24,594 bases of DNA from a virus. Taxonomy: Duplodnaviria; Heunggongvirae; Uroviricota; Caudoviricetes. The notes beneath the pieces were generated by a model. That model was not told the origin of the DNA. It saw only the letters and a program-made list of their open reading frames with translations, and ran no database searches. Shown piece after piece: positions 1-22,767 of the stretch. The first letter of the stretch is position 1; each line of letters begins with the position of its first letter. The stretch lies in IMG/VR virus record IMGVR_UViG_2609459839_000005; one strand, given 5' to 3'. Position numbers and translations under genes: made by a program.

Positions 1-1236
1 CTACGATAACCGCGCATTCAACATGGCTATCTGTTCGTCGTTCATGTCATCAATCCACATACCGTAAATTTCATACACCATCTGCGCAGTTTCATGCCCC
101 ATTTGGCTGGCTATAAATGCCGGGTTCGCTCCTGCCGTCAACAGCCAGCAGGCAAAAGTATGCCGCGTATGGTACGGATTACGGCGGCGAATACCAGCAC
201 GTTTTACTGCTGCATTCCACCTTGCCCCCAAACTGCTTACCGAGTAATAAGGTTTTTGTTTTCCGTTACACACCCTGGGCATGAAAACAAAATGCAGTTT
301 TTGCTTTTCGGTTCTGCCGTACTCCCGATGATAAAAGGTGATTTCGCTTTTGCGATGATGCCCGGTCAGTTTGTATTGCTCCTTCAGTGCTTCAAGAGCA
401 GGCTGCAGTAGTGTTACTGTTCGGATCCCGGCATTTGTTTTTGGGGGACCGAACATATCAAGTATCGTCAGGTTTCTTCTGACATTCACTATTCCCTTTT
501 CGAGATCCACATCCTCCCACGCCAGAGCTGCCAGTTCCCCGTGACGAAGTCCTGAGTAAACGGCAAATTTCCACAAGTTCTGGCTCTGTCCTTTTTCACT
601 TTCCATTAATGCATTGAATTCTGTTTTAGATAACGGATCAGGCTTTATTCTGTTTCGCTGTAATTTTTTTACTCCTTCAAATGGTTTGGTTGATATAAAT
701 CCCGACTGATACGCAAAACGTAACAGCGAACAGAGCAGGGCGATATAGTTATCAACTGTGCGTACGGTTCTTCCTTTTTTGTTGGATCTTGGATTATCCA
801 TGTAAAGCGTTTCTCCATGCAGCAGTTCATTCCGGTAATTTAAGATATCGCTATAACGAATATGTGATATCGGGGTACTTTCACAAATTATTATTCTGAG
901 TGTTTTTAATTGTGATTTCGTTTTCTTCATTGTGTTTGTTGTTAACTCTGTCTCTTTAATTTTTGTCCAGATATCACAAAGCTCCCCGAACGTTTTTATG
1001 ACTCTCGTTGTCACCATTTTTGCTCCAGTGCTGGACTGGGGAAAACGTCTTAAATACTCAAATTCACCGGAGTTTATTTCATGAACTATCAGCGCTCTTA
1101 AATTTCCGGCCTTTTTAATATTACTGTTTGTAATCTCCCAGCCTTTTAATGTTTCCCGACATCGTTTTCCTCGAAACATGAACCAGATGCGAATGTATCT
1201 ACCTCTAATCTCGACACCTGTTGGTAATTTAGACAT
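1..1236 (-). CDS. intR: Phage tyrosine integrase (site-specific recombinase), 411 aa
   Basis: Full ORF with stop at 1-3. C-terminal tyrosine-recombinase signature (...HTRHTFACWLL...MGHETAQMVYEIYG) and lambda-Int-like N-terminal arm. First gene of an int-xis-ralR-recT-recE (Rac-like) block. Symbol from synteny and recollection, not a search. Confidence 0.88.
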   Translation of the reverse strand: MSKLPTGVEIRGRYIRIWFMFRGKRCRETLKGWEITNSNIKKAGNLRALIVHEINSGEFEYLRRFPQSSTGAKMVTTRVIKTFGELCDIWTKIKETELTTNTMKKTKSQLKTLRIIICESTPISHIRYSDILNYRNELLHGETLYMDNPRSNKKGRTVRTVDNYIALLCSLLRFAYQSGFISTKPFEGVKKLQRNRIKPDPLSKTEFNALMESEKGQSQNLWKFAVYSGLRHGELAALAWEDVDLEKGIVNVRRNLTILDMFGPPKTNAGIRTVTLLQPALEALKEQYKLTGHHRKSEITFYHREYGRTEKQKLHFVFMPRVCNGKQKPYYSVSSLGARWNAAVKRAGIRRRNPYHTRHTFACWLLTAGANPAFIASQMGHETAQMVYEIYGMWIDDMNDEQIAMLNARLS

Positions 1237-1237
1237 A

Positions 1238-1453
1238 TCATGATTCTTTGATAAACTGATTTATCTTTGGATAGTTGTACCAGATAATTCCTCGTTTGCT
1301 GTCTGGCTTACCTAAAGGAGATACTCGTTTGAAGTGGAAGCCCTCCACCCAACAGTTCTGGCGGTATGCTTCAATTTGTCTGGCCCCCAGACCAGTGCGA
1401 AGCATCAGGCCGTATTCAACCATCCACTCTTCATTAAAGATTACTTGTGCCAT
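1238..1453 (-). CDS. Excisionase-like small DNA-binding protein (about 71 aa)
   Basis: Small ORF directly upstream of int on the same strand. Internal ATG at 1453 ([10 protein letters not shown]...) follows GAGGTG 5 nt upstream, so the track start at 1477 is probably too long. Size, position and a W/R-rich winged-helix-like pattern fit Xis. Confidence 0.55.
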
Positions 1454-1552
1454 CGCATCACCTCTGGCAGGCGCCAATGTTAGACTGAAATTGACGCCCG
1501 ATGTTGATTATTAATAATCAGCTATGAAGTTTTAATTTGAATACAATGCAAC

Positions 1553-1741
1553 TCACGAGGACTGAAGTTTCTCGCAATTAAAATTAATCAGTTTTACTTT
1601 CTGCTCTCTGGAAACGCCTGCTTCTTTTTTACCTGAGAGCATTTTTTCGCATTCTGATTTCGTTAGTTTAGATTTTGAATATCTTGTCCAGTTAGTAGGA
1701 GTGCCACCTTCCTTTTCAATAGTGGCGGTAATTTTATACAT
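1553..1741 (-). CDS. Hypothetical small protein (YdaC-like by position)
   Basis: Track ORF 1553..1813. Preferred start is ATG at 1741 (MYKITATIEKEGG...), 6 nt after GGAG and overlapping the stop of the upstream Lar-like gene. No recognisable motif. Confidence 0.4.
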   Translation of the reverse strand: MYKITATIEKEGGTPTNWTRYSKSKLTKSECEKMLSGKKEAGVSREQKVKLINFNCEKLQSS

Positions 1742-1943
1742 GAACATCTCCATTATTATTTCCAGTGGTTCGTTTATTCCATCTTTCGAGTGCTTCTTTT
1801 TCACTTCCACCATAACCGGTTCGGGATTCGCATGCGTTACACTTCGCTCGGTAATATCCTGAAATGGCTTTCACCGTTACTGATGGACAACCACAAAATG
1901 GACATGGTTTGACTTTTTCATACCGCATTGTCTTTTCTCTCAT
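1734..1943 (-). CDS. ralR: Lar/RalR-family restriction-alleviation protein (small Cys4 zinc-ribbon)
   Basis: Translation contains KPCPFCG...CNAC, a four-Cys zinc-ribbon typical of Lar. Lies between xis-like and recT-like genes as in Rac. True start may be the second ATG at 1928 (MRYEKVKP...). Confidence 0.72.
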   Translation of the reverse strand: MREKTMRYEKVKPCPFCGCPSVTVKAISGYYRAKCNACESRTGYGGSEKEALERWNKRTTGNNNGDVHV

Positions 1944-1991
1944 ATGATAAAATTTTGTGATGGCGGTGAGGCTACACCGCCAAAGTCAATA

Positions 1992-3095
1992 TTAGGATCC
2001 GATATATTCTGGTTTCATATCTGTCAGTGTCGTTTTATACGCCTCATATAATTCACCCAGATGTGGTCGAGCAGCATTCAGCGTATTTTCCAGAGCAGTA
2101 AATTTTTGTTCTGCTTCTGGATCACCTGATGAAGGCAGGTCATTTATCATCTTCTCGATACTGGCAATAGCATTGAGACGGTGATGACGCCGAACCACTT
2201 TTCCTTTAAGCTCGGCAAAGAATTCGCCGATCTGGTTTTTCTGATCCTCTATCTCTTGGCGTAATGCAGTGGTTTCCTCAGTCGTGGCCGCGCTTTCGAC
2301 ACGCTGCCGGAATTCATCAATCCACGCTTCGTCAATACGCTGTTCGATGGTTTCTGTTCGCTGCTCGCTTACCTCTCTATAATTCTGTACCGGCACAGGA
2401 TTGATGATTTTTTCCTGTGGCTCTTCCAGTTCGTCCGGGGTATACACGCCCAGGATGACGTCAGGACAATAAAGGCGAGCCCAGTATTTCAACGCCAGAT
2501 AGGCGAGCTGTTGTTTCGGGTTTGAGGTCCATAAAGGAGAATTACGCGTAATCACGCTGGAAAGAAACACCGGTTCTCCCCAGGTAATCTCACTTTCACC
2601 GCGAAGAACTGCACCAACTCGAACGGATAGACCATACTCATCTTCACTGGTCCAACATGGGATCGTTTCTTTTTTCTCATAGATTCCGCCTCCTTTGGCC
2701 GTTTTCTTAACGGTCTCCACTCGGGTGCGAGAGCATTTCTCCCAGTCTCCCTCGTACTTGTAATGGAAGCGGCCTACAATTGCACTTGAGCTAGAGATCA
2801 CAGCGTTAACAAGTTGTGCTTCATAACCCAGAACTCCGTTTACCAGGTGTGTTTTCTGAGCCACAGCGTAGGGGTTCATGCCCCATTGCATGGCTTGCAT
2901 GATGATTGCCATGCAGTCGGCAGGTTTTCCGCGAAGGTGATCGGGAACTGTGACGGTGGCCTGTGACATCAACCCGGCTACTTCCTGAAGTTGCGTCAAC
3001 GCCTGAACGTTAAAAATAGTGTTACTGGCAGAAATGGTATTTGGTGTCTGCTCTGTCGTGATGATATTGGTATTTTGCATGGTCAGGTTCTCCAT
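1992..3095 (-). CDS. recT: RecT/Bet-superfamily single-strand annealing protein, 367 aa
   Basis: Core resembles RecT/Bet annealing proteins (…CMAIIMQAMQWGMNPY…GVLGYEAQL…). Its ATG overlaps the stop of the upstream exonuclease gene (TAATG), typical of recE-recT coupling. Longer than K-12 RecT, with a C-terminal extension. Confidence 0.68.
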   Translation of the reverse strand: MENLTMQNTNIITTEQTPNTISASNTIFNVQALTQLQEVAGLMSQATVTVPDHLRGKPADCMAIIMQAMQWGMNPYAVAQKTHLVNGVLGYEAQLVNAVISSSSAIVGRFHYKYEGDWEKCSRTRVETVKKTAKGGGIYEKKETIPCWTSEDEYGLSVRVGAVLRGESEITWGEPVFLSSVITRNSPLWTSNPKQQLAYLALKYWARLYCPDVILGVYTPDELEEPQEKIINPVPVQNYREVSEQRTETIEQRIDEAWIDEFRQRVESAATTEETTALRQEIEDQKNQIGEFFAELKGKVVRRHHRLNAIASIEKMINDLPSSGDPEAEQKFTALENTLNAARPHLGELYEAYKTTLTDMKPEYIGS

Positions 3096-6000
3096 TAAGC
3101 CAGATGCAGTGCTTCAAGACGACGAAGATCAAAGTCGTTTAATTCGTCGGTATAACTTTCGGTAATCGGTGCTGGCCAGTTGTTTGTCTCTAGGGCTTCG
3201 TTTATCTGGCGTAGCGTCCGGCGATATTCCTGTCGACCAAGTTCCAGGAGTTCCTGCGAGGCTTCCACGACTGCCACCCAGTGATAGCCAACATCTTTGT
3301 TGACGAAGATCCAGAAAAATTTGTCCAGGTTTGCCACATCACAATACATTGCGGCGCTGAGGTGATAATCACGCTCAATAATTTCACGGTGCAGGCGATC
3401 TTTAAGTCGTTCCTGCCGCACATAACCGAGGCTGACTGACTTCACGTCAGCGCAAATGCTTTCGTATGGCAGCCGGATTTCGATATCAGGACGGACCCTG
3501 ATTTCCAGCCCGGTTTCTTCATCAAACCCGAAATAGCTGATTTCAGATTTGCGATCCGGGTGGTTGAGTAGCCTTGCTGCATCGGTATTGTTTTGCAGTG
3601 CCGCGTGAATATTTTTTGCCTGTTCATACATATCCGCACTGATAAACGTTTTCCCGGCGTTTTCTTCTTGCTGTCGTTTTTGCCAGTCCTCCAGTGTCAC
3701 CAGTTCCGGGCGAATTTTCCGTGCGATTTCGGTTAATTGCTCTTTTGTGCCACTGATGTTGTAAGGCAACGATTTAGCACGTTCTTTTTTTGCCAGTTCT
3801 GGATCTACAGTTTCAATTTGCTCCAGAAGCTGCTCCCGTGTTCCACTGGTTTTCAGCAGAGGAGGGAGGCTTGCGTTGTATTCTTTAATACAGGCTTTCA
3901 TTGCTGATGCTGTGTGTTTTTCCCCCTCAGGAATACGCCGAAATTCCTCCGGAAGCGAACCGTAAAGGATGCCTGTTTCTTCGGCCCCAGCGCTTACCGA
4001 CAGTGGCTGTATAAGAATGCTGTTGTAGCTTTCGATCCACTCTTTCATCTGCTCTGGTGTCATCAGTGATGGCAGACTGGCATTGTGTTTTTTAATGATG
4101 GTGATCAGTTCGTTAGAAGTAGTAACCACATATTCAGGAACCGGTACCGGAATGGCATATTCATCAGCGAATTTATCCGTTTCCAGAACATAGCTGTGAA
4201 TGATCCGCCCACGCAGCAATGCATCACTTTCCTCGTTCGGAATAGTCCCGGCAATGTGCCGCCCGTGGTAATACATCAGACTGATGCGGGCATCCTTCAG
4301 CATTGTGCTGCTTATTCCGTTGGCGGAGTGATAAACCTCGTTCGGGAGGTTTTCATAGCGGCCAGGCTCGAAATATGACGGCCACATGATTTCAGTTGCT
4401 ACATTAGCTGACGCTTCACCAGTTTCATCACTGCAATCGTGATGCGGATGGTTGCCAGCATTCTCCTTGTGTGGATGTTCAGCGCTTTCCATTTCCTCCG
4501 GATCATTTTCCTGAACTTCAACCTGATTCTCTTCATCGAATGTTTCCTGGTATGTTGCGTCGCCCATCACCGCACCACAATCAGGGCAGTTGCCGCCGTC
4601 GGTCTGACCGCAGGCGGCGCAGGCTTTTTCCGGCTCCTGTTGCGTTATTGGCTCGGATTGTTTCGTTTCTGGCTCGTTTTGTTGCGCATTTCGGCTGTTT
4701 TGTTCCGCTTTCTGGTCGTTCTGTTCCGTTTCTTGCTGGTTCTGATTCACTGAATCGCGGGTTTCAATCCCCTTCACCCATTTCGGATCGTTCGGGTCGC
4801 TAATTCCGTCAACAAATTCACCACGTGATGCAGCAAGTAATTTATCGGCATCGACAGGATTTTTTGATGGAATGTTTTTCCGGGCTTCATGGAGTTCTGC
4901 CCGCAGTTCCTGATATTTCGCATCAACAGAATTTACCTGTGACTGAGCATCCAGCGGCTGCGTGTCCTGATGATGTTCAGTTGCATTCGGTTCCACTGTT
5001 TCAGCCGTTGCCTGTTCATCTGCCATTGCGCCAGATGGTTGTGGTTTTTCTTCATCGTCCTGTTTTCCTTCTTCTGTCACACGCTGCGGCATCGGGGCAG
5101 AGGAGCGACCGCAGGCAATATCCACAATTTCCGGATCAGGGTTGGCATGATCAGTTTCAGTCAGTACTTTGTTCAGATATTCAGTGACGTGCGCGGGGAT
5201 GACCTCGATCCCAATTGGTGCTTCTTTCACGGACGCAACCACGGTGGCGCGGGAATAATCCAGCCCGCCAGGCATGGTGATGAATTTGTCGCGGAAAACA
5301 GAAAAGGGCGGTTTATTTTCAGCGATAATTTCCTCAATGCGTTTAGCGTGTGCCGGATGAAGGTTATAGATGTCCACGTCCATTGAACGGGCCAGTACGC
5401 CAGTGGCTACATCGCGTGCCAGTGACGTCAGATCGTGGACGAAACCTTCGCCGCGATCGGTGAGGTTCCCGCCGCCAGCATTAGCACCGGAAGCCGTGCG
5501 AGTGATGCGTGAAACACGATTCCCTTTCCTCCATTCTTTTGTCAGAAGACCACGATCAATGTGTTCGGTATCCAGCCAGGCTGAAATGAAATTCTTAAAT
5601 TCATAGGGCTGATGTTTTTTCGTGATAGAGAAAACTGCCTTAATTGCATCAGTCAGGCGGAGCAGGGCGGCATTATCCAGAGTTGTCGGTTCTGCCATGC
5701 CGCGTATGGCCAACAGCAGATTCTGGACATAGCTGTTTTCCTGGTCCATCTCAAGAGCAGTAATGTGTTCGCGTTGTTCACGGGTGGCATGATGCAGGTA
5801 TTTCCGATCCCCGGCCGCATACGTAAAAATGTGCAGAAGACGCTGTGTGAACCGCAAAGTGGCTACAGAAACTTCGCAATCCTGGCAATCCCCGTGGGCG
5901 TCTGCCTGCGCGTTTTCTTCCTGGCCTCCCGCCAGTTCTTTGGTTTCCTGGGTATTCTCCTGATGGTGAACGTCGTCTGGTGCTGCACCCGGTTTTAGTT

Positions 6001-6262
6001 CCCAGGTGATGGAGTCCTTGCCGAGTTGATAGCGTTCACACCACGTAAAATCGATCTCACCTTCAGGGGGAAGGTCATTAACGACAGGAAAATTAGTTGC
6101 AACAGTTTTAAAATAGTTGCTCAGTTTTTTACCTGACTTAACGATCAGGTAGTCCAGAGTGGCACTGGTCGATTCAAAATCGTCGCTTGCCCACAGGACG
6201 ACGTCAGGTTCACCGGATGATTTTTTCGCTTTCCGTAAAAGGAAGAGTGGTTTTGTGCTCAT
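3095..6262 (-). CDS. recE: RecE-like exodeoxyribonuclease VIII, 1055 aa, with acidic low-complexity central linker
   Basis: Large ORF ahead of the annealing-protein gene. C-terminal third looks like a PD-(D/E)xK-type exonuclease domain (…[11 protein letters not shown]…DVKSVS…). Central Q/E/D-rich segment holds a CAACG…CPDCG Cys4 cluster. Start at 6262 follows GAGG. Confidence 0.68.
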
Positions 6263-6361
6263 TGTTTTTTAACCTCAACTCAGATTAAAATTACTGCGAG
6301 TGATGAATAAATGTCCCAGGTTCTTCACTCAGGCCTGCACACTGTGCAGGCTTTCTTTTTT

Positions 6362-6637
6362 TCAGATTTCACCGTTTAATTTCATTGCGATCAGAGTTGC
6401 CAGAAATCCAGCTTTTTTTTCTGCGGGCAGATTCTTTCCGATGTAAACCAGGCACATTTTTGTGACACCTTCATCAAGTGTTTTAACGTTGCCTGATGGA
6501 CCGTCGATATCAACCACAGTGAAAGGGGTTTCTTTATTTTCTGTTTTAATCACGTAGCCAATGCGCTTTCCTTCCAGATTCACCTCGTGAACAATGTCAT
6601 CGGTAGTTACAACAGTGGCTTCATAATTGGTAATCAT
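6362..6637 (-). CDS. racC: RacC-like small protein (91 aa)
   Basis: Track ORF runs to 6685, but the ATG at 6637 (MITNYEATVV...) follows AAGGAG with a 6-nt spacer. Sits between recE-like and kilR-like genes as in Rac. Confidence 0.55.
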   Translation of the reverse strand: MITNYEATVVTTDDIVHEVNLEGKRIGYVIKTENKETPFTVVDIDGPSGNVKTLDEGVTKMCLVYIGKNLPAEKKAGFLATLIAMKLNGEI

Positions 6638-6711
6638 GTTTTTCTCCTTAATTAAGGTTGAGCGAATCTCTACCATTTCTGGCATAAATTCAGTTTCGAA
6701 TAGTCAATTAA

Positions 6712-6882
6712 TTAAAGTTCGTGTGCCATCTGGTCTTTTTCGGCACAGATTTCACTACAATATTTTTTCATTTCCGTCGTTGGTATAACTCCACGCATGA
6801 AATGAAGTGGTCTTGTAATGATTTTGCTTTCTTCAATTTCTTTATTGCAAAGGTGATAAGCACATTTTATTTTCTTAGTCAT
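6712..6882 (-). CDS. ydaE: Small Cys-rich protein (YdaE-like; 56-58 aa)
   Basis: Not in the ORF track (below 60 aa). Hand translation of the minus strand gives (MV)[56 protein letters not shown] with a CxxxxC…CxxxC pattern. Alternative start at 6888. Confidence 0.45.
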   Translation of the reverse strand: MTKKIKCAYHLCNKEIEESKIITRPLHFMRGVIPTTEMKKYCSEICAEKDQMAHEL

Positions 6883-7103
6883 TACCATGACTCCGCCTTT
6901 ACAGGTAAACCATCACGACCGAGGAAGACTTTAATCATGCAGTCAGAAATGCATGTTTTTGTAGTCAGGCTACGAATATAAAGTTTTCGCTTTTTAATAT
7001 TGTTTGCCGAGGCGATATATGTCCGACCTTCATGAAGAACATAATCGCCAGGGGTCACACACTGACGTGGTATTTCATCAGTTCCGAAGTGATGAGCAAT
7101 CAT
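6882..7103 (-). CDS. kilR: KilR-like cell-division inhibitor (73 aa)
   Basis: ATG at 7103 ([15 protein letters not shown]...) follows GGAG with a 6-nt spacer; the track start at 7115 lacks an SD. Small basic protein in the kil position of a Rac-like early operon. Confidence 0.65.
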
Positions 7104-7511
7104 AATTATCTCCATTTTTACAAATGAATTTTGTCGATGCGGTGCCTGGTGCCTCCAGGTGACGTTAACCAGTTAACAATTAACGCCGGATAATCCACCC
7201 ATAACACTGATGCTTTTAACTGCGCCGCGTGCGCTTAGCCGCATTCACCGCATCACAAAATTCACTTTAAAAAGGGGCGGCAGGGCAGCTACGGAGTAGA
7301 ACTGGTGCCGCCAAAAACTAGACACAGCAATGTCGTTATTTACAACCGGAGGCGCACTCCCACCATTTAAATTTAACAGACAAGACCGACTCTTTATGGA
7401 TACCGGAAATGCGCCTTCGTATTGTGCCCGGTTTTATTTCACCACCTCCGGGCTTTGGTGGCCTCGGCTATACCCCTACAGCAAGAATATTGAATTAATC
7501 CAATAAATGGT

Positions 7512-7664
7512 TTAGCTGGTATTTTTGGCAAGCCAGCGACGTGCGCCAGCTTCGGTTTTAAACGATTTGCTTTTGGTATACGTCATGGCGGTGAATGTGC
7601 CGTCCTGATTGGGAAACACGCCACATACCAGAGATTCGTTGTTGCCAAGATCGATAGTATCCAT
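7512..7664 (-). CDS. Small hypothetical protein (about 50 aa; YdaF-like by position)
   Basis: Internal ATG at 7664 (MDTIDLGNNESLVCGV...) is preceded by GAGG; track ORF is 7512..7727. No motif recognised. Confidence 0.35.
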   Translation of the reverse strand: MDTIDLGNNESLVCGVFPNQDGTFTAMTYTKSKSFKTEAGARRWLAKNTS

Positions 7665-7913
7665 GTTGACCTCATTTCCCCTTAACGCCGGGTGGCGGAA
7701 CGTTTTATCTACTGCGCTTTGTATCAATCAACAACTGCCGTCATGTTCGTATGCCTCAGGCTGGCTACTTAGCCCTGTTCAGTGGCTGGATAACTCGAGG
7801 TATTGTCCTGCCGTTCTCTGGTGGGGCGTTGTTTGGATATGTTTATTAAACACAATTCGTTTTCTCATGTCAACACGAAGTGTGTTTTATAGTGGGTGTC
7901 ATATGATGATGGT

Positions 7914-7939
7914 ACAAAAAAGCCCGCTGATAGCGGGCT
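7914..7939 (-). terminator. Rho-independent terminator downstream of the repressor gene
   Basis: Hairpin AGCCCGC-tgata-GCGGGCT, followed on the minus strand by a U-run (plus-strand A-run 7915-7920), 30 nt past the repressor stop. Confidence 0.55.
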
Positions 7940-7969
7940 GATTGGCATATTACTGTGATAGCAAGATCA

Positions 7970-8389
7970 TTACTCCGGTGGGGGATTATCTTTAAGCCTG
8001 CCTCTCAAATATTTTTCTACATACTCATCGATTTCTTTTAGCCGGACTTCAAATAGCTCAATCATTCGTTGTTGTTCTGAGCCCGGTAGCTGGTTAAACA
8101 ACTCAAGAAGTTTTCGTTGGGATTCATTTAACCACAATTCAGAAGATTCCTGTTCTCCAAAGAGGAGCTCAGGAGGAGATATGCCAAGTGCCTTTCCCAA
8201 TACGACAGCGTCATGCACTCCAACATTTCTGCTGCCCGCCTCATAGTTACCTATACGCGATTGCGTCCATCCGCAGATTTCAGCAAGTTTTCCTTGAGAT
8301 AAACCAAGCTTCTGCCTGCGCTCTTTAAGACGCATTGCAATTTTGTCATTGAGCCTACTAGCGGCAATTTTTTCGTTTTCTTTTTCCAT
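7970..8389 (-). CDS. racR: XRE-family HTH repressor (cI-like, RacR-like), 139 aa
   Basis: N-terminal helix-turn-helix (…LKERRQKLGLSQGKLAEICGWTQSRIGNYEAG…). Divergent from a Cro-like gene across a 96-bp region with inverted repeats. Confidence 0.75.
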   Translation of the reverse strand: MEKENEKIAASRLNDKIAMRLKERRQKLGLSQGKLAEICGWTQSRIGNYEAGSRNVGVHDAVVLGKALGISPPELLFGEQESSELWLNESQRKLLELFNQLPGSEQQRMIELFEVRLKEIDEYVEKYLRGRLKDNPPPE

Positions 8390-8400
8390 TGCATCCTTGT

Positions 8401-8461
8401 ATCACGAATCGTGATTTACATAAAACACAAAACAGCTTGACCATATAACACAAGATGTGTT
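8401..8461. promoter_or_regulatory. Immunity-region operator/promoter: two inverted repeats within the divergent intergenic region
   Basis: Perfect palindrome ATCACGA-a-TCGTGAT (8401-8415) and AACACA-aga-TGTGTT (8447-8461). The second lies in the spacer of a plus-strand promoter candidate (TTGACC 8437-8442, TTTAAA about 8460-8465). Confidence 0.4.
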
Positions 8462-8485
8462 TAAAATTGTCATCGGAGGTTTTCA

Positions 8486-9000
8486 ATGAACAAAATTTCA
8501 ACATATCGAAAACAGCTTGGGCTGTCTCAAAGACAACTTGCTGTTCAGTTACCACATCACGCAAAGTGGCTTCAACGCTGGCAATGGCAATCAGCAAAGG
8601 TCGTCTGATTCGCGTAAATCAGGGCGGTAAATTTCGTTACTGCATACCGGGCGATAATTTACCAGCAGAGCCGAAAGCAGCATCGGTAGCGGAAACTGAT
8701 GGTAAGGCCTTTCCTCAGCCCGCAGGTGTTGCATTACCAGTACAGGAGGCTGCAACACAGGAAGATATTAAAACAGAAACGGTGGTGGACATTGTGCAAT
8801 CGCTGCCATCGTTTACTGAAACGCGAGCGGATGACCTGGTTTTACCATCGCTGCATATGGCAAACCGCGAACTGCGTCGGGCGAAAAATCATGTCCAGAA
8901 GTGGGAGCGAGTCTGCGCCGCGCTGCGGGAGCTGAACAAGCACCGGGATATTGTTCGACAGATTGTCGATTCCTCCAGTCGTATTGTGTCGGAAAAGTGA
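8486..9000 (+). CDS. Cro/YdaS-like early gene with disrupted reading frame (possible pseudogene)
   Basis: ATG at 8486 with GGAGG 8 nt upstream opens [22 protein letters not shown]…, which stops after 40 codons (TGA 8606-8608). The long track ORF 8455..9000 is in a different frame and has no SD at its own ATG. Confidence 0.4.
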
Positions 9001-9015
9001 TTGCCGGAGGCACCT

Positions 9016-9438
9016 ATGGCAAAAGTATTTACACCAGAAGAGCGGGAAAAAATTAAAGGGCAGGTTGTTGAACTTGTACGTCTGAGCGGTCGCGAGACGT
9101 TACGGGCTCTGGAGGCTAAAACCGGTGCATCAAGGTATTACATAAGCACTCTCGCCAGAGAACTGGTCGCCAGTGGTGATGTTTACAATTCAGGCTACGG
9201 ATTATTCCCGTCTGAGCAGGCGCGTAAAGACTGGCAAAACGCCCGCAAAAAACTCTCAAGGGCAAATCTGAAGAAACCATCTGTGGTTGATCCGGATCTT
9301 ATCTGGTCATTACCAGACGGAGAAATACGCCGCTACAACAGGCGTCTGAACATAATTTGCCGTGAGTGCCGGAAGAGTGAGGTTATGCAGCGAGTGCTGG
9401 CGTTTTATCAGGGGAAATTTCAGGAGGTGATGCTGTGA
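9016..9438 (+). CDS. Hypothetical early protein, 140 aa (YdaT-like by size and position)
   Basis: ATG at 9016 (MAKVFTPEEREKIKG…) is preceded by GGAGG; track ORF starts at 9001. Position after the cro-like gene. Confidence 0.5.
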   Translation: MAKVFTPEEREKIKGQVVELVRLSGRETLRALEAKTGASRYYISTLARELVASGDVYNSGYGLFPSEQARKDWQNARKKLSRANLKKPSVVDPDLIWSLPDGEIRRYNRRLNIICRECRKSEVMQRVLAFYQGKFQEVML

Positions 9439-9689
9439 GCGAATCAAAATGTCAGGTTAATGGCAATCAGATAGAACCGTGTACGGCACTGGCAAAATCC
9501 CTTGAGCATGATGCTGAATACACGACGCGAAAAGGTCTGCTGATATACAAAATCTGGAATGAGAATTTAACTCGCGACCCTGATTTGGTGATGTTGCGTT
9601 CCGGTGAATTTTCTAAATTACCAGTGCGGGTTTCATTTTGTCCGTTCTGTGGTGAAAGTCTGAAAACGTGGGAGAACAGAAATGAATGA
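9435..9689 (+). CDS. Small Cys-motif protein (84 aa), putative zinc-ribbon
   Basis: GTG start overlapping the previous stop (GTGA), with CAGGAGG upstream. Contains KC…PC near the N-terminus and CPFCG near the C-terminus, the same motif as in the Lar-like protein. Confidence 0.45.
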   Translation: MSESKCQVNGNQIEPCTALAKSLEHDAEYTTRKGLLIYKIWNENLTRDPDLVMLRSGEFSKLPVRVSFCPFCGESLKTWENRNE

Positions 9690-9993
9690 AATTAGAGAAA
9701 TACCAGTAGTACGTGATGAATATGGCTGCTGGACGCATCCTGAATATGAAAAATTCTGTGATGGTAGAGAACTTATTTCAACGAAAGAGTTTAACGCCTG
9801 GATGGAGGAAAATAATCTTCAATACGTCCTCTGCTTCAGAGATGAAGGATGTGCTGACCTTGATGCGTGTGATGCTGATATTTCTGCATGGGAACCGGAA
9901 CGACCAGAGGGCAATGGATGGTTTATTGGTTCAATACATGACACCGAAGATGGCCCGGTTTGTGTATGGCTGAGAAATAAGGCCGAAGCATAA
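9682..9993 (+). CDS. Small strongly acidic hypothetical protein (103 aa)
   Basis: ATG overlaps the previous stop (ATGAATGA). About 24 Asp+Glu versus 9 Lys+Arg, plus scattered Cys. Confidence 0.5.
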   Translation: MNEIREIPVVRDEYGCWTHPEYEKFCDGRELISTKEFNAWMEENNLQYVLCFRDEGCADLDACDADISAWEPERPEGNGWFIGSIHDTEDGPVCVWLRNKAEA

Positions 9994-10298
9994 AGGCTAT
10001 AAACCGACTAACAACTAAATACTGAAGATTTAAATCAGAAACGATTTTTATTAAATCCTTAACCGGAGGGATTCTGCACCCTCAGAACATCAGGAGGCCG
10101 TCTGAAAGGGCGGAACAGATAATGCTTACGTTGAAACATTTTATCGACATACCAACATGGTTAGCCGTCATTGCTTTTGTTAAAATACACATCCACTTTT
10201 CTGTGCAATGTTTAACCACTGGTCATATCAAATGGCATTCATGCGAACCATGATATAGAATCATGGCTTGAGAGAGTCGATGAAAGCGCAACTATGGT

Positions 10299-10871
10299 AT
10301 GAGAGACATTGATGTAAGAAAGGCTGTGCATGCCAAGATTCTGAGAGATCATCATAAAGATCCTGACACCCTAATCATTGATGAGTTTACGATGAATCTA
10401 GGGGCTAGCAGAGCTGATATAGCAGTGATCAATGGGCTTATACATGGTTATGAGTTGAAGAGCAAGAGTGATAACTTGCTCAGATTACCAGCGCAGGTGC
10501 AACATTACTCATCAGTGATGGATAAAGTAACGTTGGTTGTCTCTGATTGCCATCTTTATGATGCTTTAAGCATAGTTCCATCATGGTGGGGGATAAAGCA
10601 AGTTACGCAAGGTGCACGGCAAGGTATCCATTTAAAAACAATTCGAACTAGCAAGTTGAATCCACAAGTGGACAAACTTTCCTTAACAATGCTTCTTTGG
10701 AAAGATGAATTGCTTTCCCTATTAAGTGATGTAGGGGAGCTACAGAATTTGAAAAATAAACCTAAACGCGTCTTATGGTCAAAACTCGCCAATAGTATGG
10801 ATGTTGGCGAGCTTCGTGAAGCTGTTCGAGTTAAACTTAAAGCCCGTAAAGAGTGGCGAGTTGCTCAATAA
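10299..10871 (+). CDS. PD-(D/E)xK-motif nuclease-like protein, 190 aa (first gene of candidate defence cassette)
   Basis: Translation has …IDEFTMNLGASRADIAVINGLIHGYELKSKSD…: Asp in a hydrophobic strand, then E-L-K about 12 residues later. AT-rich (about 35-40% GC in sampled 60-nt stretches). Weak SD, so the start is uncertain. Confidence 0.6.
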   Translation: MRDIDVRKAVHAKILRDHHKDPDTLIIDEFTMNLGASRADIAVINGLIHGYELKSKSDNLLRLPAQVQHYSSVMDKVTLVVSDCHLYDALSIVPSWWGIKQVTQGARQGIHLKTIRTSKLNPQVDKLSLTMLLWKDELLSLLSDVGELQNLKNKPKRVLWSKLANSMDVGELREAVRVKLKARKEWRVAQ

Positions 10872-11934
10872 CCTTAGTTATGTGATGGTTTTGCCCAATC
10901 CTACGCCATACCTCTGGGCTACCAAATTTATAGTTACCAGAGGGATTGGCTTTGTAGGCTTGATACTCGTTTGCATAATATTCTATGTCTCTATCTCCCG
11001 CACAGAATGTAGGCCCTGAATATTCTCGATGAGCAAGAATATCCTCACTATGTTTACCATATTGTTCATAACCAAAGCGATTAGCTACTCTTCCTCGAAA
11101 TACCCAAAAGTCATTATCTCCAGAGTATCTGACGCTGGCAGATACGCTAGGGAATCGCGTCGAAAGCCTATTAAAGTCGGGGTGCTGTACTCCATAATCA
11201 CTATAAATCACATTTCTGGCAAGTTCTTTTCTATTCATTAAACTCTGCCATAAAATCCACTCGATTCGAGGTTGAGAATATAGACCAACAGAAATATCAC
11301 TGAGATCTGTAGGAAATGAACCCCCAGAAAGAATCACTTTTCTGTATTCATTGAGGTGCGCCAGATTGTTTATCAATCCCATTGCCAAAGTATATAGTTC
11401 GCCGGAATTAAGTTTATCCTCGGTTAACTCATCTCTTAAGTCAATAATTATATCAATATTTGATAAAGGAATTCCCAGATGATTAATGTAATGCGTTATT
11501 AATTGTGGGTTAACCAGATCTAACGTGGTTAATCTCAAGCATATTTCATTCTGCATTAATTCATCAATCGCTCTTTTATAGTTAGATGGGCGAGTTGGTG
11601 AACTGACAGGAATAACTCTTATCCCCATATCTCTAACTTGATTAACCGCATTTATTATAGGGTAATGATCTTCAGGAGAAATAAAATGCTCTTCAATTAA
11701 TAATCCATCAATATAAACACCTTGCATATCTGAGCAAGATTTTGAGACTTTCTTTCCGAACTCTATAAGAGTCTCGTTATAACTCTTTAAGGCAATACCT
11801 GAATCAGGGTCAATTGGCACTGGTTCAATTTCGAGTAATGGCAAAATTTTTGATTTCTTTTCAATGGATAGCTGCGATAAAGCTGATAACTCAGAACGTT
11901 TCGCTTTCAGAATAGGAATATATGAAATTGTCAT
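10837..11934 (-). CDS. 365-aa partner protein of the cassette (possibly beta/sce7725-like family)
   Basis: Long clean AT-rich ORF (MTISYIPILKAKRSELSALSQL…) converging on the 190-aa gene, with 35 bp of 3' overlap. SD-like AAGG 7 nt ahead of the ATG. Family assignment is recollection only. Confidence 0.62.
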   Translation of the reverse strand: MTISYIPILKAKRSELSALSQLSIEKKSKILPLLEIEPVPIDPDSGIALKSYNETLIEFGKKVSKSCSDMQGVYIDGLLIEEHFISPEDHYPIINAVNQVRDMGIRVIPVSSPTRPSNYKRAIDELMQNEICLRLTTLDLVNPQLITHYINHLGIPLSNIDIIIDLRDELTEDKLNSGELYTLAMGLINNLAHLNEYRKVILSGGSFPTDLSDISVGLYSQPRIEWILWQSLMNRKELARNVIYSDYGVQHPDFNRLSTRFPSVSASVRYSGDNDFWVFRGRVANRFGYEQYGKHSEDILAHREYSGPTFCAGDRDIEYYANEYQAYKANPSGNYKFGSPEVWRRIGQNHHITKVIEQLATLYGL

Positions 11935-12286
11935 GTTAATACCTTATACAGAATCAATTAACAATTAATGGTTCTTCGGACATTGAAATTTATATCGCAA
12001 AAATTGGCAAACTCTCCTCGACTACTCACTTGTGGGTATCCTGGCGTAAAAGGAATGACTTGGCAATACCCGGTGTGATCATAAGTCATTGAAAATGATC
12101 ATTTTTATCAGTCTTTCTTCCATGATGAATGCTAATGCCATTTGATTTGTTGAGGTGAAAACTGTTAAAAATCAAAACGATGTAATTGAAATGAACGTTC
12201 GGTAGCATTCACGCTTTAAATGTTTCTTTTGTGCTGATTGGATGAATTTTGGTCACTTATGATGAGAGATGTTGCAGGAAAAGAAG

Positions 12287-12315
12287 TTGGCATTGATCTA
12301 TTGGATAGTTAGAAT
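12287..12315 (+). promoter_or_regulatory. Sigma70-type promoter candidate for the hok-family mRNA
   Basis: TTGGCA (12287-12292), 17-bp spacer, TAGAAT (12310-12315). Predicted transcript of about 415 nt to the terminator at about 12737, typical of hok mRNAs. Confidence 0.4.
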
Positions 12316-12490
12316 TGCTGCGGGTGCTTGAGGCTATCTGCCTCAGGCATGAACACCAAAAGGCAGATAGAGAAAAGCCCCAGTTAACATTACGCGTCCT
12401 GCAAGACGTTTAACATTAATCTGAGGCCATATCTATGCGACACATAGAGATTAGCCTCTTACGGACCGAAAGGTCAAGGAGAAGCAGGCT

Positions 12491-12646
12491 ATGAAGCAGC
12501 AAAAGGCGATGCTAATCGCCCTGATCGTCATCTGTTTAACCGTCATAGTGACGGCACTGGTAACGAGGAAAGACCTCTGCGAGGTACGAATCCGAACCGG
12601 CCAGACGGAGGTCGCTGTCTTCACAGCTTACGAACCTGAGGAGTAA
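12491..12646 (+). CDS. Hok/Gef-family type I toxin (51 aa, single TM segment)
   Basis: Not in the ORF track (below 60 aa). Hand translation: MKQQKAMLIALIVICLTVIVTALVTRKDLCEVRIRTGQTEVAVFTAYEPEE, with the Hok/Gef signature LVTRKDLCEV…RTGQ…EVAVF…AYE. AAGGAG lies 8-13 nt upstream. Confidence 0.82.
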   Translation: MKQQKAMLIALIVICLTVIVTALVTRKDLCEVRIRTGQTEVAVFTAYEPEE

Positions 12647-12713
12647 GAGACCAGGCGAGGGAGAAATCCCTCGCCACCTCTCATGTGTCAGGCATCCTCA
12701 ACGCACCCGCACT

Positions 12714-12737
12714 AAACCCGCTTCGGCGGGTTTTTTG
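12714..12737 (+). terminator. Rho-independent terminator of the hok-family transcript
   Basis: AAACCCGC-ttcg-GCGGGTTTTTT: GC-rich stem, tetraloop and T-run, about 70 nt past the hok stop. Confidence 0.65.
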
Positions 12738-12921
12738 TTGCGTGCTGAATGCGCAGGGTGAAAAATAACCATATATTTGATTATATACACAACAAAAAAT
12801 AAAAGTCATTGTACCTGCACATTAAATAATCAAATATACAGCGTGAAATAAATGTTTTTCAGATTAATATTTTTGTCTCTATGTGGATATAACCGTTTGT
12901 ACTTATAAACTCGGAGGCATC

Positions 12922-13134
12922 GTGGAAAAAATAAAGAAACTATTTAGTTGCAAATACGCAGTCATACGTCGTGATGACCTGTCAGTTATAGTCGAAATGG
13001 ATTACTTCCCTGACCCCCCAAAATCAATGATGTATCGTAATGGTCGAAAGGCAATTTTTTTACCGATGAGGGTAAGTGACATTATGGGAAATGATAAACT
13101 GCTGGATGAATTGCGAGTCAGAGCATCCTGTTAG
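12922..13134 (+). CDS. Hypothetical protein (about 70 aa)
   Basis: Track ORF 12883..13134. GTG at 12922 follows GGAGG (short spacer); the ATG at 12883 has no SD. No motif recognised. Confidence 0.3.
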   Translation: MEKIKKLFSCKYAVIRRDDLSVIVEMDYFPDPPKSMMYRNGRKAIFLPMRVSDIMGNDKLLDELRVRASC

Positions 13135-13205
13135 TATTGGCATTAATTCTGGTATACTACATAACGGGCTGAACACCCATTCTACTGCGCCAGCGGAGAA
13201 CTACG

Positions 13206-13805
13206 ATGGCGCATATACAACTGGTCAAACAAACCTCTTCCGGATTACTTCTCCCGGCGACGCCGGAGAGTTGCGATTTTTTGCATCAAATCAAAATAGG
13301 TGAGTGGATACACGCAGACTTTAAGCGTGTGCGTAACTACGCATTCCACAAGCGTTTTTTCAAACTCCTGCAACTGGGATTCGATTACTGGACTCCGGTC
13401 GGTGGGGCGATCACGCCTCGCGAACGAAAACTGGTATCAGGCTTCGTTGATTACCTGTGCGAATCAGTAGGTCGGGAACACACTCCAGCCCTGAGTGATG
13501 CCGCAGAGCAATACCTTAATACAGTTGCGACATGCAGAACCCGGGATACGGCATTGCTAAAGTCGTTTGACGCTTTCCGCGAGTGGGTAACCATTCAGGC
13601 CGGATTTTACACCGAGCATATTTATCCTGATGGTAGTCGTGGGCGCAGGGCAAAATCTATCGCATTTGCGAACATGGACGAAACCGAGTTTCAGCAGGTT
13701 TATAAATCTGTACTGAATGTGCTGTGGAACTGGATCCTGTTCCGTAAATTTTCCTCTCCGGAGGAAGTCGAAAATGTGGCCGCGCAGTTACTGGAGTTTG
13801 CGTAA
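13206..13805 (+). CDS. Nin-region phage protein, 199 aa (possibly DUF1367/YbcN-like)
   Basis: ATG preceded by GGAGA. First gene of a tightly packed plus-strand block that ends in a Q-like gene. Confidence 0.5.
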   Translation: MAHIQLVKQTSSGLLLPATPESCDFLHQIKIGEWIHADFKRVRNYAFHKRFFKLLQLGFDYWTPVGGAITPRERKLVSGFVDYLCESVGREHTPALSDAAEQYLNTVATCRTRDTALLKSFDAFREWVTIQAGFYTEHIYPDGSRGRRAKSIAFANMDETEFQQVYKSVLNVLWNWILFRKFSSPEEVENVAAQLLEFA

Positions 13806-14095
13806 TGGTGGATTTACGTAAAGCGGCGCGGGGGCAGATGTGCACCGTCAGAATTCCTGGCTACTGCAATCACAATCCCGAAACTTCTGTGCTGGCGCAT
13901 TACAGGCTGGCGGGGACGTGCGGAACAGCGATAAAGCCACACGATATGCAGGCAGCGATTGCCTGTAGCTCGTGCCACGATTTAATCGACGGGCGGGTAA
14001 AAACCAGCGATTACACCAAAGAAGAATTACGCCTGATGCATGCAGAAGGTGTTTTTCGCACACAAGAAATCTGGAGAAAGGAGGGATATTTATGA
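13805..14095 (+). CDS. YbcO-like small Cys/His-rich protein (DUF1364-type putative nuclease), 96 aa
   Basis: MVDLRKAARGQMCTVRIPGYCNHNPETSVLAHYRL…IACSSCHDLIDGR, with conserved Cys/His spacing as recalled for DLP12 YbcO. Start overlaps the previous stop. Confidence 0.55.
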   Translation: MVDLRKAARGQMCTVRIPGYCNHNPETSVLAHYRLAGTCGTAIKPHDMQAAIACSSCHDLIDGRVKTSDYTKEELRLMHAEGVFRTQEIWRKEGYL

Positions 14096-14634
14096 TTTAC
14101 CCAACGAATACAGGAAAAAGCGGAGAACACCTTCGTCTCACCACGCTGGAAAGTGTCTGGATTCAGGGAAAACTGCGCATGTGGGGGCGCTGGTCGTATA
14201 TTGGCGGCGGTAAGACGGGGAATATGTTCAACCAGTTGTTGGCCTCTAAAAAGCTGACAAAAACGGCAATTAACGAGGCGCTCCGGAGGATGAAAAAAGC
14301 AGGTCTGAACAAGTCTGAACTTGAGGCTTTTTTGCGGGATATGATTAACGGTAAGCAAAAGAGCTGGCTGGCGCATTGTACTGATGCAGAGGCGTTATGT
14401 ATTGATCGGGTGATTAGTGAAGTGCTGGCAGAACACCCAGGATTGATTTTTATCCTCCGGCAACGATATGAAGGAAGGGGGATGACTAAGCGAAAAATGG
14501 CTGAATTGCTAAATGATGCACACCCTGAGTGGTGTTTTAGCACATGCGAAAAGCGAATTGCTAATTGGTTGGCTGTTGCTGAGTATGCGCTGTACGTTCC
14601 CATGCGAGAATCATTCGCTCAAAAAATAGCTTGA
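14092..14634 (+). CDS. Putative late-gene antiterminator (Q-like), 180 aa
   Basis: ATG at 14092 overlaps the upstream stop (ATGA) and follows AGGAGG. Last gene before a non-coding stretch with a hairpin plus T-run, tRNAs and lysis genes. Assignment is by position; no motif confirmed. Confidence 0.45.
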   Translation: MIYPTNTGKSGEHLRLTTLESVWIQGKLRMWGRWSYIGGGKTGNMFNQLLASKKLTKTAINEALRRMKKAGLNKSELEAFLRDMINGKQKSWLAHCTDAEALCIDRVISEVLAEHPGLIFILRQRYEGRGMTKRKMAELLNDAHPEWCFSTCEKRIANWLAVAEYALYVPMRESFAQKIA

Positions 14635-14990
14635 TTTTTTACGCATAAACTGCTTCAATTCCGGTATGCTTCGCAAAGCTGTATCGCGAGGCGAATAGCA
14701 GTTTTGAACATCTAAAGACCCCGTTTAATGCGGGTTTTTTTATGCCCAAAAACGAAGTAGTGCGTTAAAATGTGATGGTCGGGAGTATACAGACTTTTAT
14801 ATAGCACTGCGTAAAAATCAATTTATCCGGGGTAAATGTCAATTTGCTTATTAAAAAAAACAAAAAGATAAATTTATAGCAATTGTGTTTCTTTGGGTTG
14901 AAAGTTTTAATGTCGTCAGTATTATCTGAAGCGGTTCTGAGGAGGGGGTTTCCATTGCTCGGCCACGATACTTCCGAGGAACCAATTAAC

Positions 14991-15066
<76 letters not shown>

Positions 15067-15069
15067 TAT

Positions 15070-15144
<75 letters not shown>

Positions 15145-15190
15145 GCAGAGGACGATGCTAGGCTGTTTCAGGCACTGACACATTATATGT

Positions 15191-15469
15191 GTGGGATGTT
15201 TTACCCTAACTCCTTACCACATCCTGTTCTGTAATGAATATTATTTATTACGGTACCAGTGTTGTTTTTTTACAATAGTGGAATGGTGCATTACTGGTGG
15301 AGATTTGTATTTCCTGGCAGGGCTGGTAATGTATCATTCCGGTGTTGTAAATAACACCCCAGAGACGTTCCTCAGTGCGAGGGTGGTTGAAAGAGTCGGT
15401 TTTGCGGGAAACCACAGCATCCATGCAGGACTGGATGTTTCGGGAGGCACCCGACGTCTCTGGTCATAA
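15191..15469 (+). CDS. Hypothetical ORF (92 aa), doubtful
   Basis: Track ORF only; no SD and odd composition. Sits where cargo genes lie in some lambdoid phages, but shows no similarity to Stx A subunits as I recall them. Confidence 0.2.
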   Translation: MGCFTLTPYHILFCNEYYLLRYQCCFFTIVEWCITGGDLYFLAGLVMYHSGVVNNTPETFLSARVVERVGFAGNHSIHAGLDVSGGTRRLWS

Positions 15470-15508
15470 TAAAATCATAGTGTTCTCTTCATGCCATTTT
15501 ATGCCATA

Positions 15509-15534
15509 GACCGCCACGCCAGGCGGTTTTTTTT
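15509..15534 (+). terminator. Rho-independent terminator
   Basis: CCGCC-acgcca-GGCGG followed by a T8 run. Confidence 0.55.
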
Positions 15535-15716
15535 ATTCAGAATTCAGTATTTATGCGGCTCGCTACGGCGGGCCTTTTTCATATCCGCGCCACGCCCGGC
15601 GCATATCAAAAACCACAGAGCCTTTCAGGGGTGAGCTTACGGGATGGTCAGTGTGACTTTCTCTGTGGGCTGGTCACCCCCGGGCGCAGGCCCACCCACT
15701 AAGAGGAAACGTCACT

Positions 15717-16143
15717 ATGTTTGGTATTTTCAAAAAGAAAACCCGCAAGGCCATTACTGAAGTGAAGAAAATGGAGAACCGCGACGCGGTGGAGGCGACC
15801 GTCTGGGGTGCATATTCCATTGCATACGCTGACGGCACCTGTGACGCGAAAGAAATCGCGGTACTGGAAAAAAACCATTGCAGCACTTCCTGTCTTTGCG
15901 CCGTTCTCCGGTGAGATTGCACAAATGAGTGCAAATATCCGCGCCCGTTATGAAGCGTCGCCGCGTTCTGCCAATGCCGAAGCTCTTCGTCAGCTGGCTG
16001 ATGTTGCCGGTACTGATGATGCAGTTAATGTGCTGTGCCTGTGTCTGGATATCGCTGACCAGGACGGTATCGGTCAGGAAGAAGAAGCGCAACTGAAGAA
16101 AATTGCGCAGGCGCTGCAGTTGCCGCTGGAGCAGTACCTGTGA
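15717..16143 (+). pseudogene. TerB-like protein gene interrupted by a +1 frameshift in an A7 tract
   Basis: Track ORFs 15717..15914 and 15808..16143 join into one TerB-like protein (…AYADGTCDAKEIAVLEK|TIAALPVF…DDAVNVLCLCLDIADQDGIGQEEEAQLKKIAQALQLP) if the A-run at 15868-15874 were 6 or 9 nt. GAGG upstream of the ATG. Confidence 0.5.
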
Positions 16144-16292
16144 AAAGTGCGCGCCTTGTGCTGGCTGTCATCCTGTTGTTTCTGGTAGTGGTGGTTGATT
16201 TCACCGGACGACTGATGTCGGTGCTGGCAGATGGTGTGCTGGTGGCGATGGCGCTGGTCGTGCTCCGGCCTTTACTGCGTAAATCTGAATAA
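16140..16292 (+). CDS. Small hydrophobic membrane peptide (about 50 aa), GTG start
   Basis: Hand translation VKSARLVLAVILLFLVVVVDFTGRLMSVLADGVLVAMALVVLRPLLRKSE. GTG overlaps the TerB-like stop (GTGA). No SD, so speculative. Confidence 0.3.
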   Translation: MKSARLVLAVILLFLVVVVDFTGRLMSVLADGVLVAMALVVLRPLLRKSE

Positions 16293-16302
16293 CATCACAC
16301 AA

Positions 16303-16340
16303 AAGGCATCTGCGGATGCCTTTGACGGGGTGTTTTTTAC
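16303..16340 (+). terminator. Hairpin plus T-run (terminator-like)
   Basis: GGCATC-tgcg-GATGCC followed by TTTgacggggtgTTTTTT. The interrupted T-run makes this weak. Confidence 0.3.
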
Positions 16341-16378
16341 GGGTCGCTGGTGGCCCTTTTTTATTTTCAGGAGGAAGT

Positions 16379-16771
16379 ATGTCTGAACCCTTATCCGGTT
16401 CCGGCACGGCTGCGGCGCTGGGTGGCGCGACGGTATTCGGGCTGTTTACCGGGATGGATTTCGGGATTGTGTTTGGCGCGTTCGCCGGGGCGTTATTTGT
16501 GGCAACGATGCCGCAGTCACTTTCAGTCTGGCGCGTGGTGGCACATTTTCTGGTGTCGTTTATTGTCGGCGTGCTGGGAGCGCGTGTGCTGTCAGCCTGG
16601 ATTGCATCAAAAACAGGGTATGACGGTACATCAGCAGATGCGCTTTGCGCGGTGCTGGTCTCGGTTGTGTCGGTGAAGATTCTCTCGTTCATCCACCAGC
16701 AGGATATTGCATCGCTGGTGTCCGGTGTGTTCTCCCGCCTGCGGGGTGGAGGAGGCGGCAATGTTAAGTAA
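16379..16771 (+). CDS. Holin-like membrane protein (about 130 aa, Gly/Ala-rich TM segments)
   Basis: ATG at 16379 after AGGAGG. Three predicted hydrophobic segments, directly upstream of a second membrane protein and the endolysin remnant. Confidence 0.5.
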   Translation: MSEPLSGSGTAAALGGATVFGLFTGMDFGIVFGAFAGALFVATMPQSLSVWRVVAHFLVSFIVGVLGARVLSAWIASKTGYDGTSADALCAVLVSVVSVKILSFIHQQDIASLVSGVFSRLRGGGGGNVK

Positions 16772-17036
16772 CCTTCCCGGATTGCTGAATGTGGTGTTAT
16801 GCACAGTTATCGTGCTGACGCTCTTTTTTTATCGTCGCCGTGATTCCAGACATAAACCGCTGGTGTCATGGCTGGCCTGGCTGCTGATGCTGCTGTATGC
16901 CTTTGCGCCCCTCAGTTATCTGTGTGGTCGCCCGTTAGCAACGGGCTGGCTGGAAGTGTTTTTTAACCTGCTGTTCTGCGTGCTGGTGATACGCGCACGC
17001 GGGAACGTCACAAAAATCTTTCCATTGTTGAGGTGA
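16761..17036 (+). CDS. Second small membrane protein of the lysis cassette (holin/antiholin-like, 91 aa)
   Basis: ATG at 16761 after GGAGG, overlapping the previous gene. Two or three TM segments and a basic stretch (YRRRDSRHK). Confidence 0.45.
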   Translation: MLSNLPGLLNVVLCTVIVLTLFFYRRRDSRHKPLVSWLAWLLMLLYAFAPLSYLCGRPLATGWLEVFFNLLFCVLVIRARGNVTKIFPLLR

Positions 17037-17038
17037 AT

Positions 17039-22200: not shown

Positions 22201-22213
22201 TTAAGGAGAAATA

Positions 22214-22744: not shown

Positions 22745-22767
22745 TTTAATTTATCGCGAGAAAAACT

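Follow-up and report, generated by a model that had tools for sequence, protein, structure and literature searches.

The window is the whole stretch of DNA that was analysed, 24,594 nucleotides in length, and it comprises a whole prophage running from integrase to tail fibre. Gene content and order are those of the Rac family (intR, xisR, ralR/RalA, recT, recE, kilR, and the repressor onward), and positions 1-8551 are 99.7% identical to the prophage of E. coli 214-4. The window begins at the integrase gene; the 214-4 element abuts ttcA. Features are collected in Table 1, in which L003 and L004 denote the loci of the intact prophages of strains RM8385 and 214-4, L001 denotes a further related locus, Rfam matches are those above the gathering score and the codons of the DUF1627 gene are numbered from L004 12392-13153.

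The immunity region carries a repressor gene and, divergent from it, a start codon at ATG 8486 with the sequence GGAGG at 8475-8479, six bases 5' of it. The frame opened there comprises 40 codons and is closed by TGA 8606-8608; its 40-aa product has no Pfam match and is not on record as a called gene. A longer ORF at 8455-9000 (181 codons) occupies another frame (8455 mod 3 = 1; 8486 mod 3 = 2), and its ATG 8455 is not preceded by a Shine-Dalgarno sequence. The sequence and the ORF list therefore agree with the original prediction, which had described a Shine-Dalgarno-backed start at 8486 opening a 40-codon frame and a long ORF in a different frame that lacks translation signals at its start. 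It had also placed at 8486 the start of a Cro-position gene that diverges from the repressor and is broken near its 5' end. Both points hold: the gene is the first of the rightward operon, its start lies 96 nt from the repressor start (8389) with an operator region common to the two, and identity to intact prophages stops at 8551.

Table 1. Coordinates of features in the window
Feature	Position	Strand	Basis and remarks
RalA antitoxin sRNA	1557-1735	+	Rfam; adjoins ralR
DicF sRNA	7275-7326	-	Rfam; between kilR and the DUF1391 gene
Repressor gene, intact, 139 aa, XRE/HTH_3	7970-8389	-	Pfam HTH_3 E 4.7e-13; maps onto WP_000410105.1 in L003 and L004
Divergent promoter/operator region, intact	8390-8485		100% identical to intact prophages
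Spurious 5' extension of the long ORF	8455-8549	+	Cro and promoter sequence in intact prophages
Cro-like gene, 5' remnant, codons 1-22 of 80	8486-8551	+	100% identical to L003 6527-6592 and to L004
Deletion junction	8550-8551		2-nt overlap (TA) common to both parental sequences; base-by-base comparison and blastn block overlap
DUF1627 (YdaW-family) gene, 3' remnant: third base of codon 104, codons 105-253, stop	8550-9000	+	100% identical to L001 2501-2951
Out-of-frame tail of the 40-codon ORF	8552-8608	+	DUF1627 DNA in the wrong frame: 18 codons, then stop (translation)
DUF977 gene, intact	9016-9438	+	Pfam DUF977 E 1.2e-27, full length; same order in L001, L003 and L004
sce7726 family / beta family pair, convergent, overlapping	10299-10871 / 10837-11934	+ / -	Names from related-genome annotation
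sok antisense RNA	12322-12493	+	Rfam; adjoins hokD
Two tRNA genes	14991-15063, 15070-15141	+	Rfam; annotated tRNA-Thr and tRNA-Gly at the corresponding 214-4 positions

The region 8380-9020 was searched against 5,426 complete E. coli genomes. It was matched in 2,773 of them, at a query coverage of about 75% at most. All good matches begin at query positions 163-171 (window 8542-8550), inside an annotated DUF1627 gene with a DUF977 gene downstream of it, and window 8550-9020 shows 100% identity to the inner part and the 3' end of a DUF1627 gene annotated at 253 aa. When 7960-8560 was used as the query, 162 complete E. coli genomes matched, 139 of them at 99% identity or more. Among the matches listed (30 genomes), all stop at query position 592, which is window 8551, and lie over a divergent pair of HTH genes; eight of these 30 are 100% identical to window 7960-8551.

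At the level of single bases, the window agrees base for base with the Cro-like gene as far as ...GCTGTTCAGTTA (8551), where the parent goes on with GGGTGGATAC; from TACCACATCACG (8550) it agrees in every base with the DUF1627 gene, in which the parent has ...ACATTGTTTGG before that point. Seven of the ten nucleotides ending at the junction match between the two parental sites (TGTTCAGTTA and TTGTTTGGTA), and both breakpoints encode the end of HTH helix 2 and the turn, QLAVQLG in the Cro-like gene and ELATLFG in the DUF1627 gene. Codon 22 of the former is joined to codons 104/105 of the latter one base out of frame. Since the change of frame coincides to the base with the breakpoint in homology at 8550/8551, it is not a chance feature. 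Illegitimate recombination at the two-nucleotide overlap, within this short and imperfect similarity, would have fused the Cro-like gene to the DUF1627 gene.

In the intact relatives (O103 RM8385 and 214-4), the 139-aa repressor on the minus strand is followed by a Cro-position HTH regulator of 80 aa, a YdaT-family gene, two replication genes, the DUF1627 gene (253-256 aa) and the DUF977 gene. When intact, the Cro-like gene consists of one uninterrupted frame of 80 codons, and it is found on at least 1000 contigs. Its product matches HTH_3 over residues 6-52, and the only Pfam families matched at E≤0.01 are HTH_3, HTH_19 and HTH_31; the YdaS family (PF15943) is not matched at that threshold, and comparison with K-12 YdaS by BLASTP yields no alignment at E≤100. 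The earlier label of the gene as Cro/YdaS-like is thus right as to position and wrong as to family, the protein being of the XRE/HTH_3 type, with no similarity to YdaS by Pfam or BLASTP. The window copy holds residues 1-22 and hence an incomplete HTH domain: helix 2 is kept, and the recognition helix and everything after it are gone. A 40-aa product that keeps only HTH helices 1-2 could presumably not act as a DNA-binding Cro.

Two shorter variants of the Cro-like protein (P0018, 61 aa, on 101 contigs; P0019, 69 aa, on 59 contigs) keep the HTH domain and diverge at the C-terminus beyond residues 60 and 66; in many E. coli genomes the 3' part of the Cro-like gene may contain further junctions or indels, of which these variants would be a sign. 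The run TTTAAAATTG (window 8460-8469; L004 9455-9727 compared with window 8455-8486) is one A shorter in strain 214-4. The upstream ATG is as a result in frame with the Cro-like gene, and RefSeq calls a 90-aa instead of an 80-aa product, whose start inside the promoter region is probably an annotation artefact.

The DUF1627 remnant is the 3' 60% of its gene, the match starting at nt 312 of 762, with the 5' 40% lost. Residues 32-170 of the ORF at 8455-9000 match positions 17-155 of the 155-position Pfam profile PF07789 (E 1.1e-89), which places it in the family, and residues 1-31 have no Pfam match. Codons 1-104 are absent, including the N-terminal winged-helix-like region (residues 1 to about 87 of 253); in the full-length protein, weak matches of the HTH_20/TrmB/MarR type are found at residues 4-46, a part missing from the window. 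The intact protein is encoded on at least 1000 contigs. The remnant has neither a start codon nor a ribosome-binding site of its own, and the only nearby ATG in its frame, at 8584, lacks a Shine-Dalgarno sequence. Backwards from the junction, the DUF1627 frame meets no stop codon in the Cro 5' end, the ribosome-binding site or the promoter and so extends to ATG 8455. Judged from the sequence, the 181-codon ORF is created by the accident of this frame being open upstream. It and the 40-codon ORF appear to be pseudogene fragments without function, and some translation of the DUF1627 frame, for instance from ATG 8584, may persist.

Compared by blastn with the 48-kb intact prophage of 214-4, window 1-8551 corresponds to L004 1001-9550 at 99.7% identity and window 8550-17232 to L004 12703-21391 at 98.7%. 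Relative to that prophage, 3,152 bp are absent at 8550/8551. The missing segment holds codons 23-80 of the Cro-like gene, ydaT, two small ORFs, both replication genes (a DnaT-domain initiator gene and a lambda-P-like gene) and codons 1-104 of the DUF1627 gene; Pfam matches of the proteins of the intact relative for the deleted genes are YdaT_toxin, DnaT and Phage_lambda_P. Both the 3,152 bp and the gene content are values for 214-4 as the closest proxy, not for the true parent, because the left side of the window is of the RM8385 type, the right side is of the B4103-1 type, and 214-4 combines the two halves at 98.7-99.7% identity. Had the parent carried an RM8385-type replication module, about 2.5 kb would have been lost. 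Among the phage collection no relative of the immunity region exceeded about 76% identity, so phage records could not serve as the parent.

The frame break is thus very probably the scar of a deletion of about 3.15 kb in a decaying Rac-family lambdoid prophage, a reading that comes from comparison of sequences. The original prediction had offered instead that a single Cro/YdaS-like gene is frameshifted near its 5' end, which would mean an indel of 1-2 nt and a long ORF that is the remainder of the gene. The two frames are indeed adjacent and overlapping, and the 5' part resembles the start of an HTH protein. Past 8551, however, the window shares only chance-level base matches with the rest of the intact Cro-like gene; the DNA there is 100% identical to the interior of the unrelated DUF1627 gene, whose place in intact prophages is some 3 kb downstream, and Pfam assigns the long ORF to DUF1627 and not to an HTH regulator. 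We therefore give a single frameshifted gene virtually no chance of being correct. A variant with two small frameshifts was also considered, the third frame being vaguely like an HTH recognition helix, and was ruled out because each flank matches a different gene at 100% identity. An assembly error that left out about 3 kb has in its favour that none of the 5,426 complete E. coli genomes carries the junction. The two nucleotides common to the parental sequences at the join are nevertheless far too short to mislead an assembler, and the window contains two more deletions of the same style, in keeping with real decay. The 181-aa fusion ORF is moreover present on an independent Logan contig of 1,403 nt (SRR1186308) that contains the repressor and the DUF1627 3' end as well as the junction, and agrees with the window at 761 of 761 nt. 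The strain behind these reads may be that of the window itself; they would then confirm the assembly and not be a second independent occurrence. An assembly artefact is extremely unlikely on this evidence.

It had further been suggested that a short Cro-like peptide is followed by an internally initiated protein. In a functional arrangement of this kind the peptide would be made from 8486 and the DUF1627 C-terminal part by internal initiation, by re-initiation or by a -1 slip. The ribosome-binding site, the operators and the predicted promoter upstream are intact, and a candidate internal start in the DUF1627 frame, ATG 8584, lies near the end of the short ORF, 22 nt before its TGA. Two GCA-AAG sites (8561-8566 and 8594-8599) are so placed that a -1 slip there would take ribosomes out of the Cro frame and into that of DUF1627, and A_AAG is a weak -1 shift-prone tetramer in E. 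coli, which counts in favour of such an arrangement. Against it, no Shine-Dalgarno sequence precedes 8584, the peptide has 22 native residues and no recognition helix, and the DUF1627 fragment lacks the N-terminal winged-helix region and profile positions 1-16. Alignment with orthologues, proposed as a check, shows that the two-frame arrangement is not common to them: the fusion ORF is found on one contig, compared with at least 1000 each for the intact Cro-like frame and the intact DUF1627 protein, and the arrangement that programmed frameshifting would call for is absent from the complete genomes searched. The junction is rare: exact searches with a 40-mer and a 24-mer spanning it found it neither in GTDB species-representative genomes nor in JGI metagenome contigs. 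A single read set contains it, and there is accordingly no sign that it has been selected. A functional two-product arrangement is rated very unlikely. The junction is a strain-specific deletion scar, and the feature as a whole is ordinary prophage decay.

Outside the deleted segment the control region is complete. Operator-like repeats are found at 8403-8418 and 8447-8464, with a related copy to the left at 7872-7889 (repeat families D1/D3, inverted repeat I2). Sequences of this kind, with the core AACAC-N5-GTGTT or CACGA-N-TCGTG, flank the repressor gene at 7844-7891 and 8403-8464. The layout is as expected for OL- and OR-type operators, the leftward set being upstream of the DUF1391/kilR operon. 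A putative rightward promoter was read by eye as TTGACC (8437-8442), a spacer of 17 nt and TTTAAA (8460-8465). A consensus promoter scan of 7800-9100 gave nothing above the shuffled expectation and did not list it. If derepressed, this promoter would drive the 40-codon ORF and then the DUF1627 fragment, DUF977 and the downstream genes; the DUF977 gene is now about 0.5 kb from it, compared with about 3.7 kb. With the repressor and the operator/promoter region untouched, the element can still repress its early promoters.

The remainder of the element has decayed as well. Further blastn blocks pair window 17231-17277 with L004 33048-33094, 17276-21728 with L004 41628-46079 and, at the end, 22592-24594 with L004 46782-48784. 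Two further deletions at about 17.2 kb accordingly remove about 20 kb (L004 21392-33047 and 33095-41627), comprising the 3' half of the M15 endolysin gene and the terminase, portal, head and tail-shaft genes, and each of their junctions has a 2-nt overlap (CA at 17231-17232, TA at 17276-17277). The 47-nt island between them (17231-17277) suggests one complex rearrangement rather than two separate events. Because these deletions take the late genes, the prophage is locked and cryptic; lacking Cro, YdaT, the initiator, the loader and most late genes, it cannot enter lytic growth. A segment of about 860 nt (21729-22591) has no megablast match to 214-4 and covers the 3' end of the ORF at 20650-22200 and the 5' part of the ORF at 22214-22744. 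It occupies the place of the tail-fibre-assembly gene and resembles an exchanged tail-fibre/host-range cassette. The sce7726/beta pair matches the PADLOC candidate-defence models cll (E 2e-28) and PD-Lambda-2_C (E 2e-41), and it is possibly a prophage-borne anti-phage system retained through decay.

The relevance of these results is mainly to annotation, and no new question is raised. Neither a Cro/YdaS-like nor a DUF1627 protein is a suitable name for the 181-codon ORF. This ORF and the 40-codon one should be annotated as remnants on either side of a deletion, and the prophage should be recorded as defective, having no Cro, YdaT, replication, head or tail-shaft genes. The locus adds one more example of Rac-type prophages being reduced step by step through short-homology deletions in which early genes toxic to the host are lost and the repressor, recET, kilR, toxin-antitoxin loci and accessory genes are kept. 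Any effect of the deletion on fitness is presumptive, and it is unlikely that the deletion was a selected step of domestication and not neutral decay. Were it so, a single event that took away Cro, YdaT and the replication genes would have ended the derepression lethality known for K-12 Rac and kept a repressor-controlled promoter, with DUF977 and the candidate defence pair brought to 0.5-2 kb from it. A weaker variant of this reading is that low-level -1 slippage at GCA-AAG might yield a hybrid in which helix 2 of the Cro-like protein is joined to the recognition helix of the second domain of the DUF1627 protein.

Among intact prophages at ttcA, 214-4 (NZ_CP025840.1) and O103 RM8385 (NZ_CP028112.1) are 99.7% and 100% identical, respectively, to the window over the repressor/Cro 5' side, and 214-4 is 98.7% identical over the DUF1627 3' end and downstream. 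Unlike the window, both have the full 80-codon Cro-like gene, ydaT, the replication genes and the full 253-256-codon DUF1627 gene, and 214-4, whose full map was read, retains all morphogenesis genes. The Rac prophage of K-12 (racR-ydaS-ydaT-ydaU-ydaV-ydaW') is of the same family as the window, with the order intR, xisR, ralR, recET, kilR and repressor, followed by a Cro-position gene, ydaT, two replication genes, DUF1627 and further genes. Both elements are remnants of about 23-25 kb of phages of about 48 kb and were shaped by internal deletions. K-12 keeps ydaS, ydaT, ydaU and ydaV intact and loses the 3' end of ydaW, whereas the window keeps the 3' end of its DUF1627 gene and has lost all from Cro codon 23 to DUF1627 codon 104. 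K-12 YdaW (186 aa; 5253-5813 of the K-12 locus, L006) aligns with the intact DUF1627 protein over residues 1-151 only and then diverges, so that the DUF1627 gene is a deletion end-point in K-12 also, at the opposite end. The immunity alleles are unrelated: BLASTP finds no similarity between K-12 YdaS and the Cro-like protein or between RacR and the repressor of the window.

In K-12, racR is essential because derepressed ydaS/ydaT is lethal (PMC5700373, PMC5700377). The earlier suggestion that a frameshift may relieve such toxicity has a real background, and it is right that ydaS/ydaT-type functions are lost, the Cro-position gene being destroyed and ydaT gone; it fails in its mechanism, which is not a frameshift, and toxicity of the Cro-like protein itself is putative. 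Rac ydaS and ydaT have been argued to be the Cro and CII analogues of a lambda-type cI/Cro/CII switch (Jobling 2018, PMC5917428). The intact relatives resemble that switch in having a divergent repressor and Cro-position gene, common operators and ydaT in the CII position. The window differs from it in that the Cro-position gene is destroyed, ydaT is absent and only the repressor half is left.
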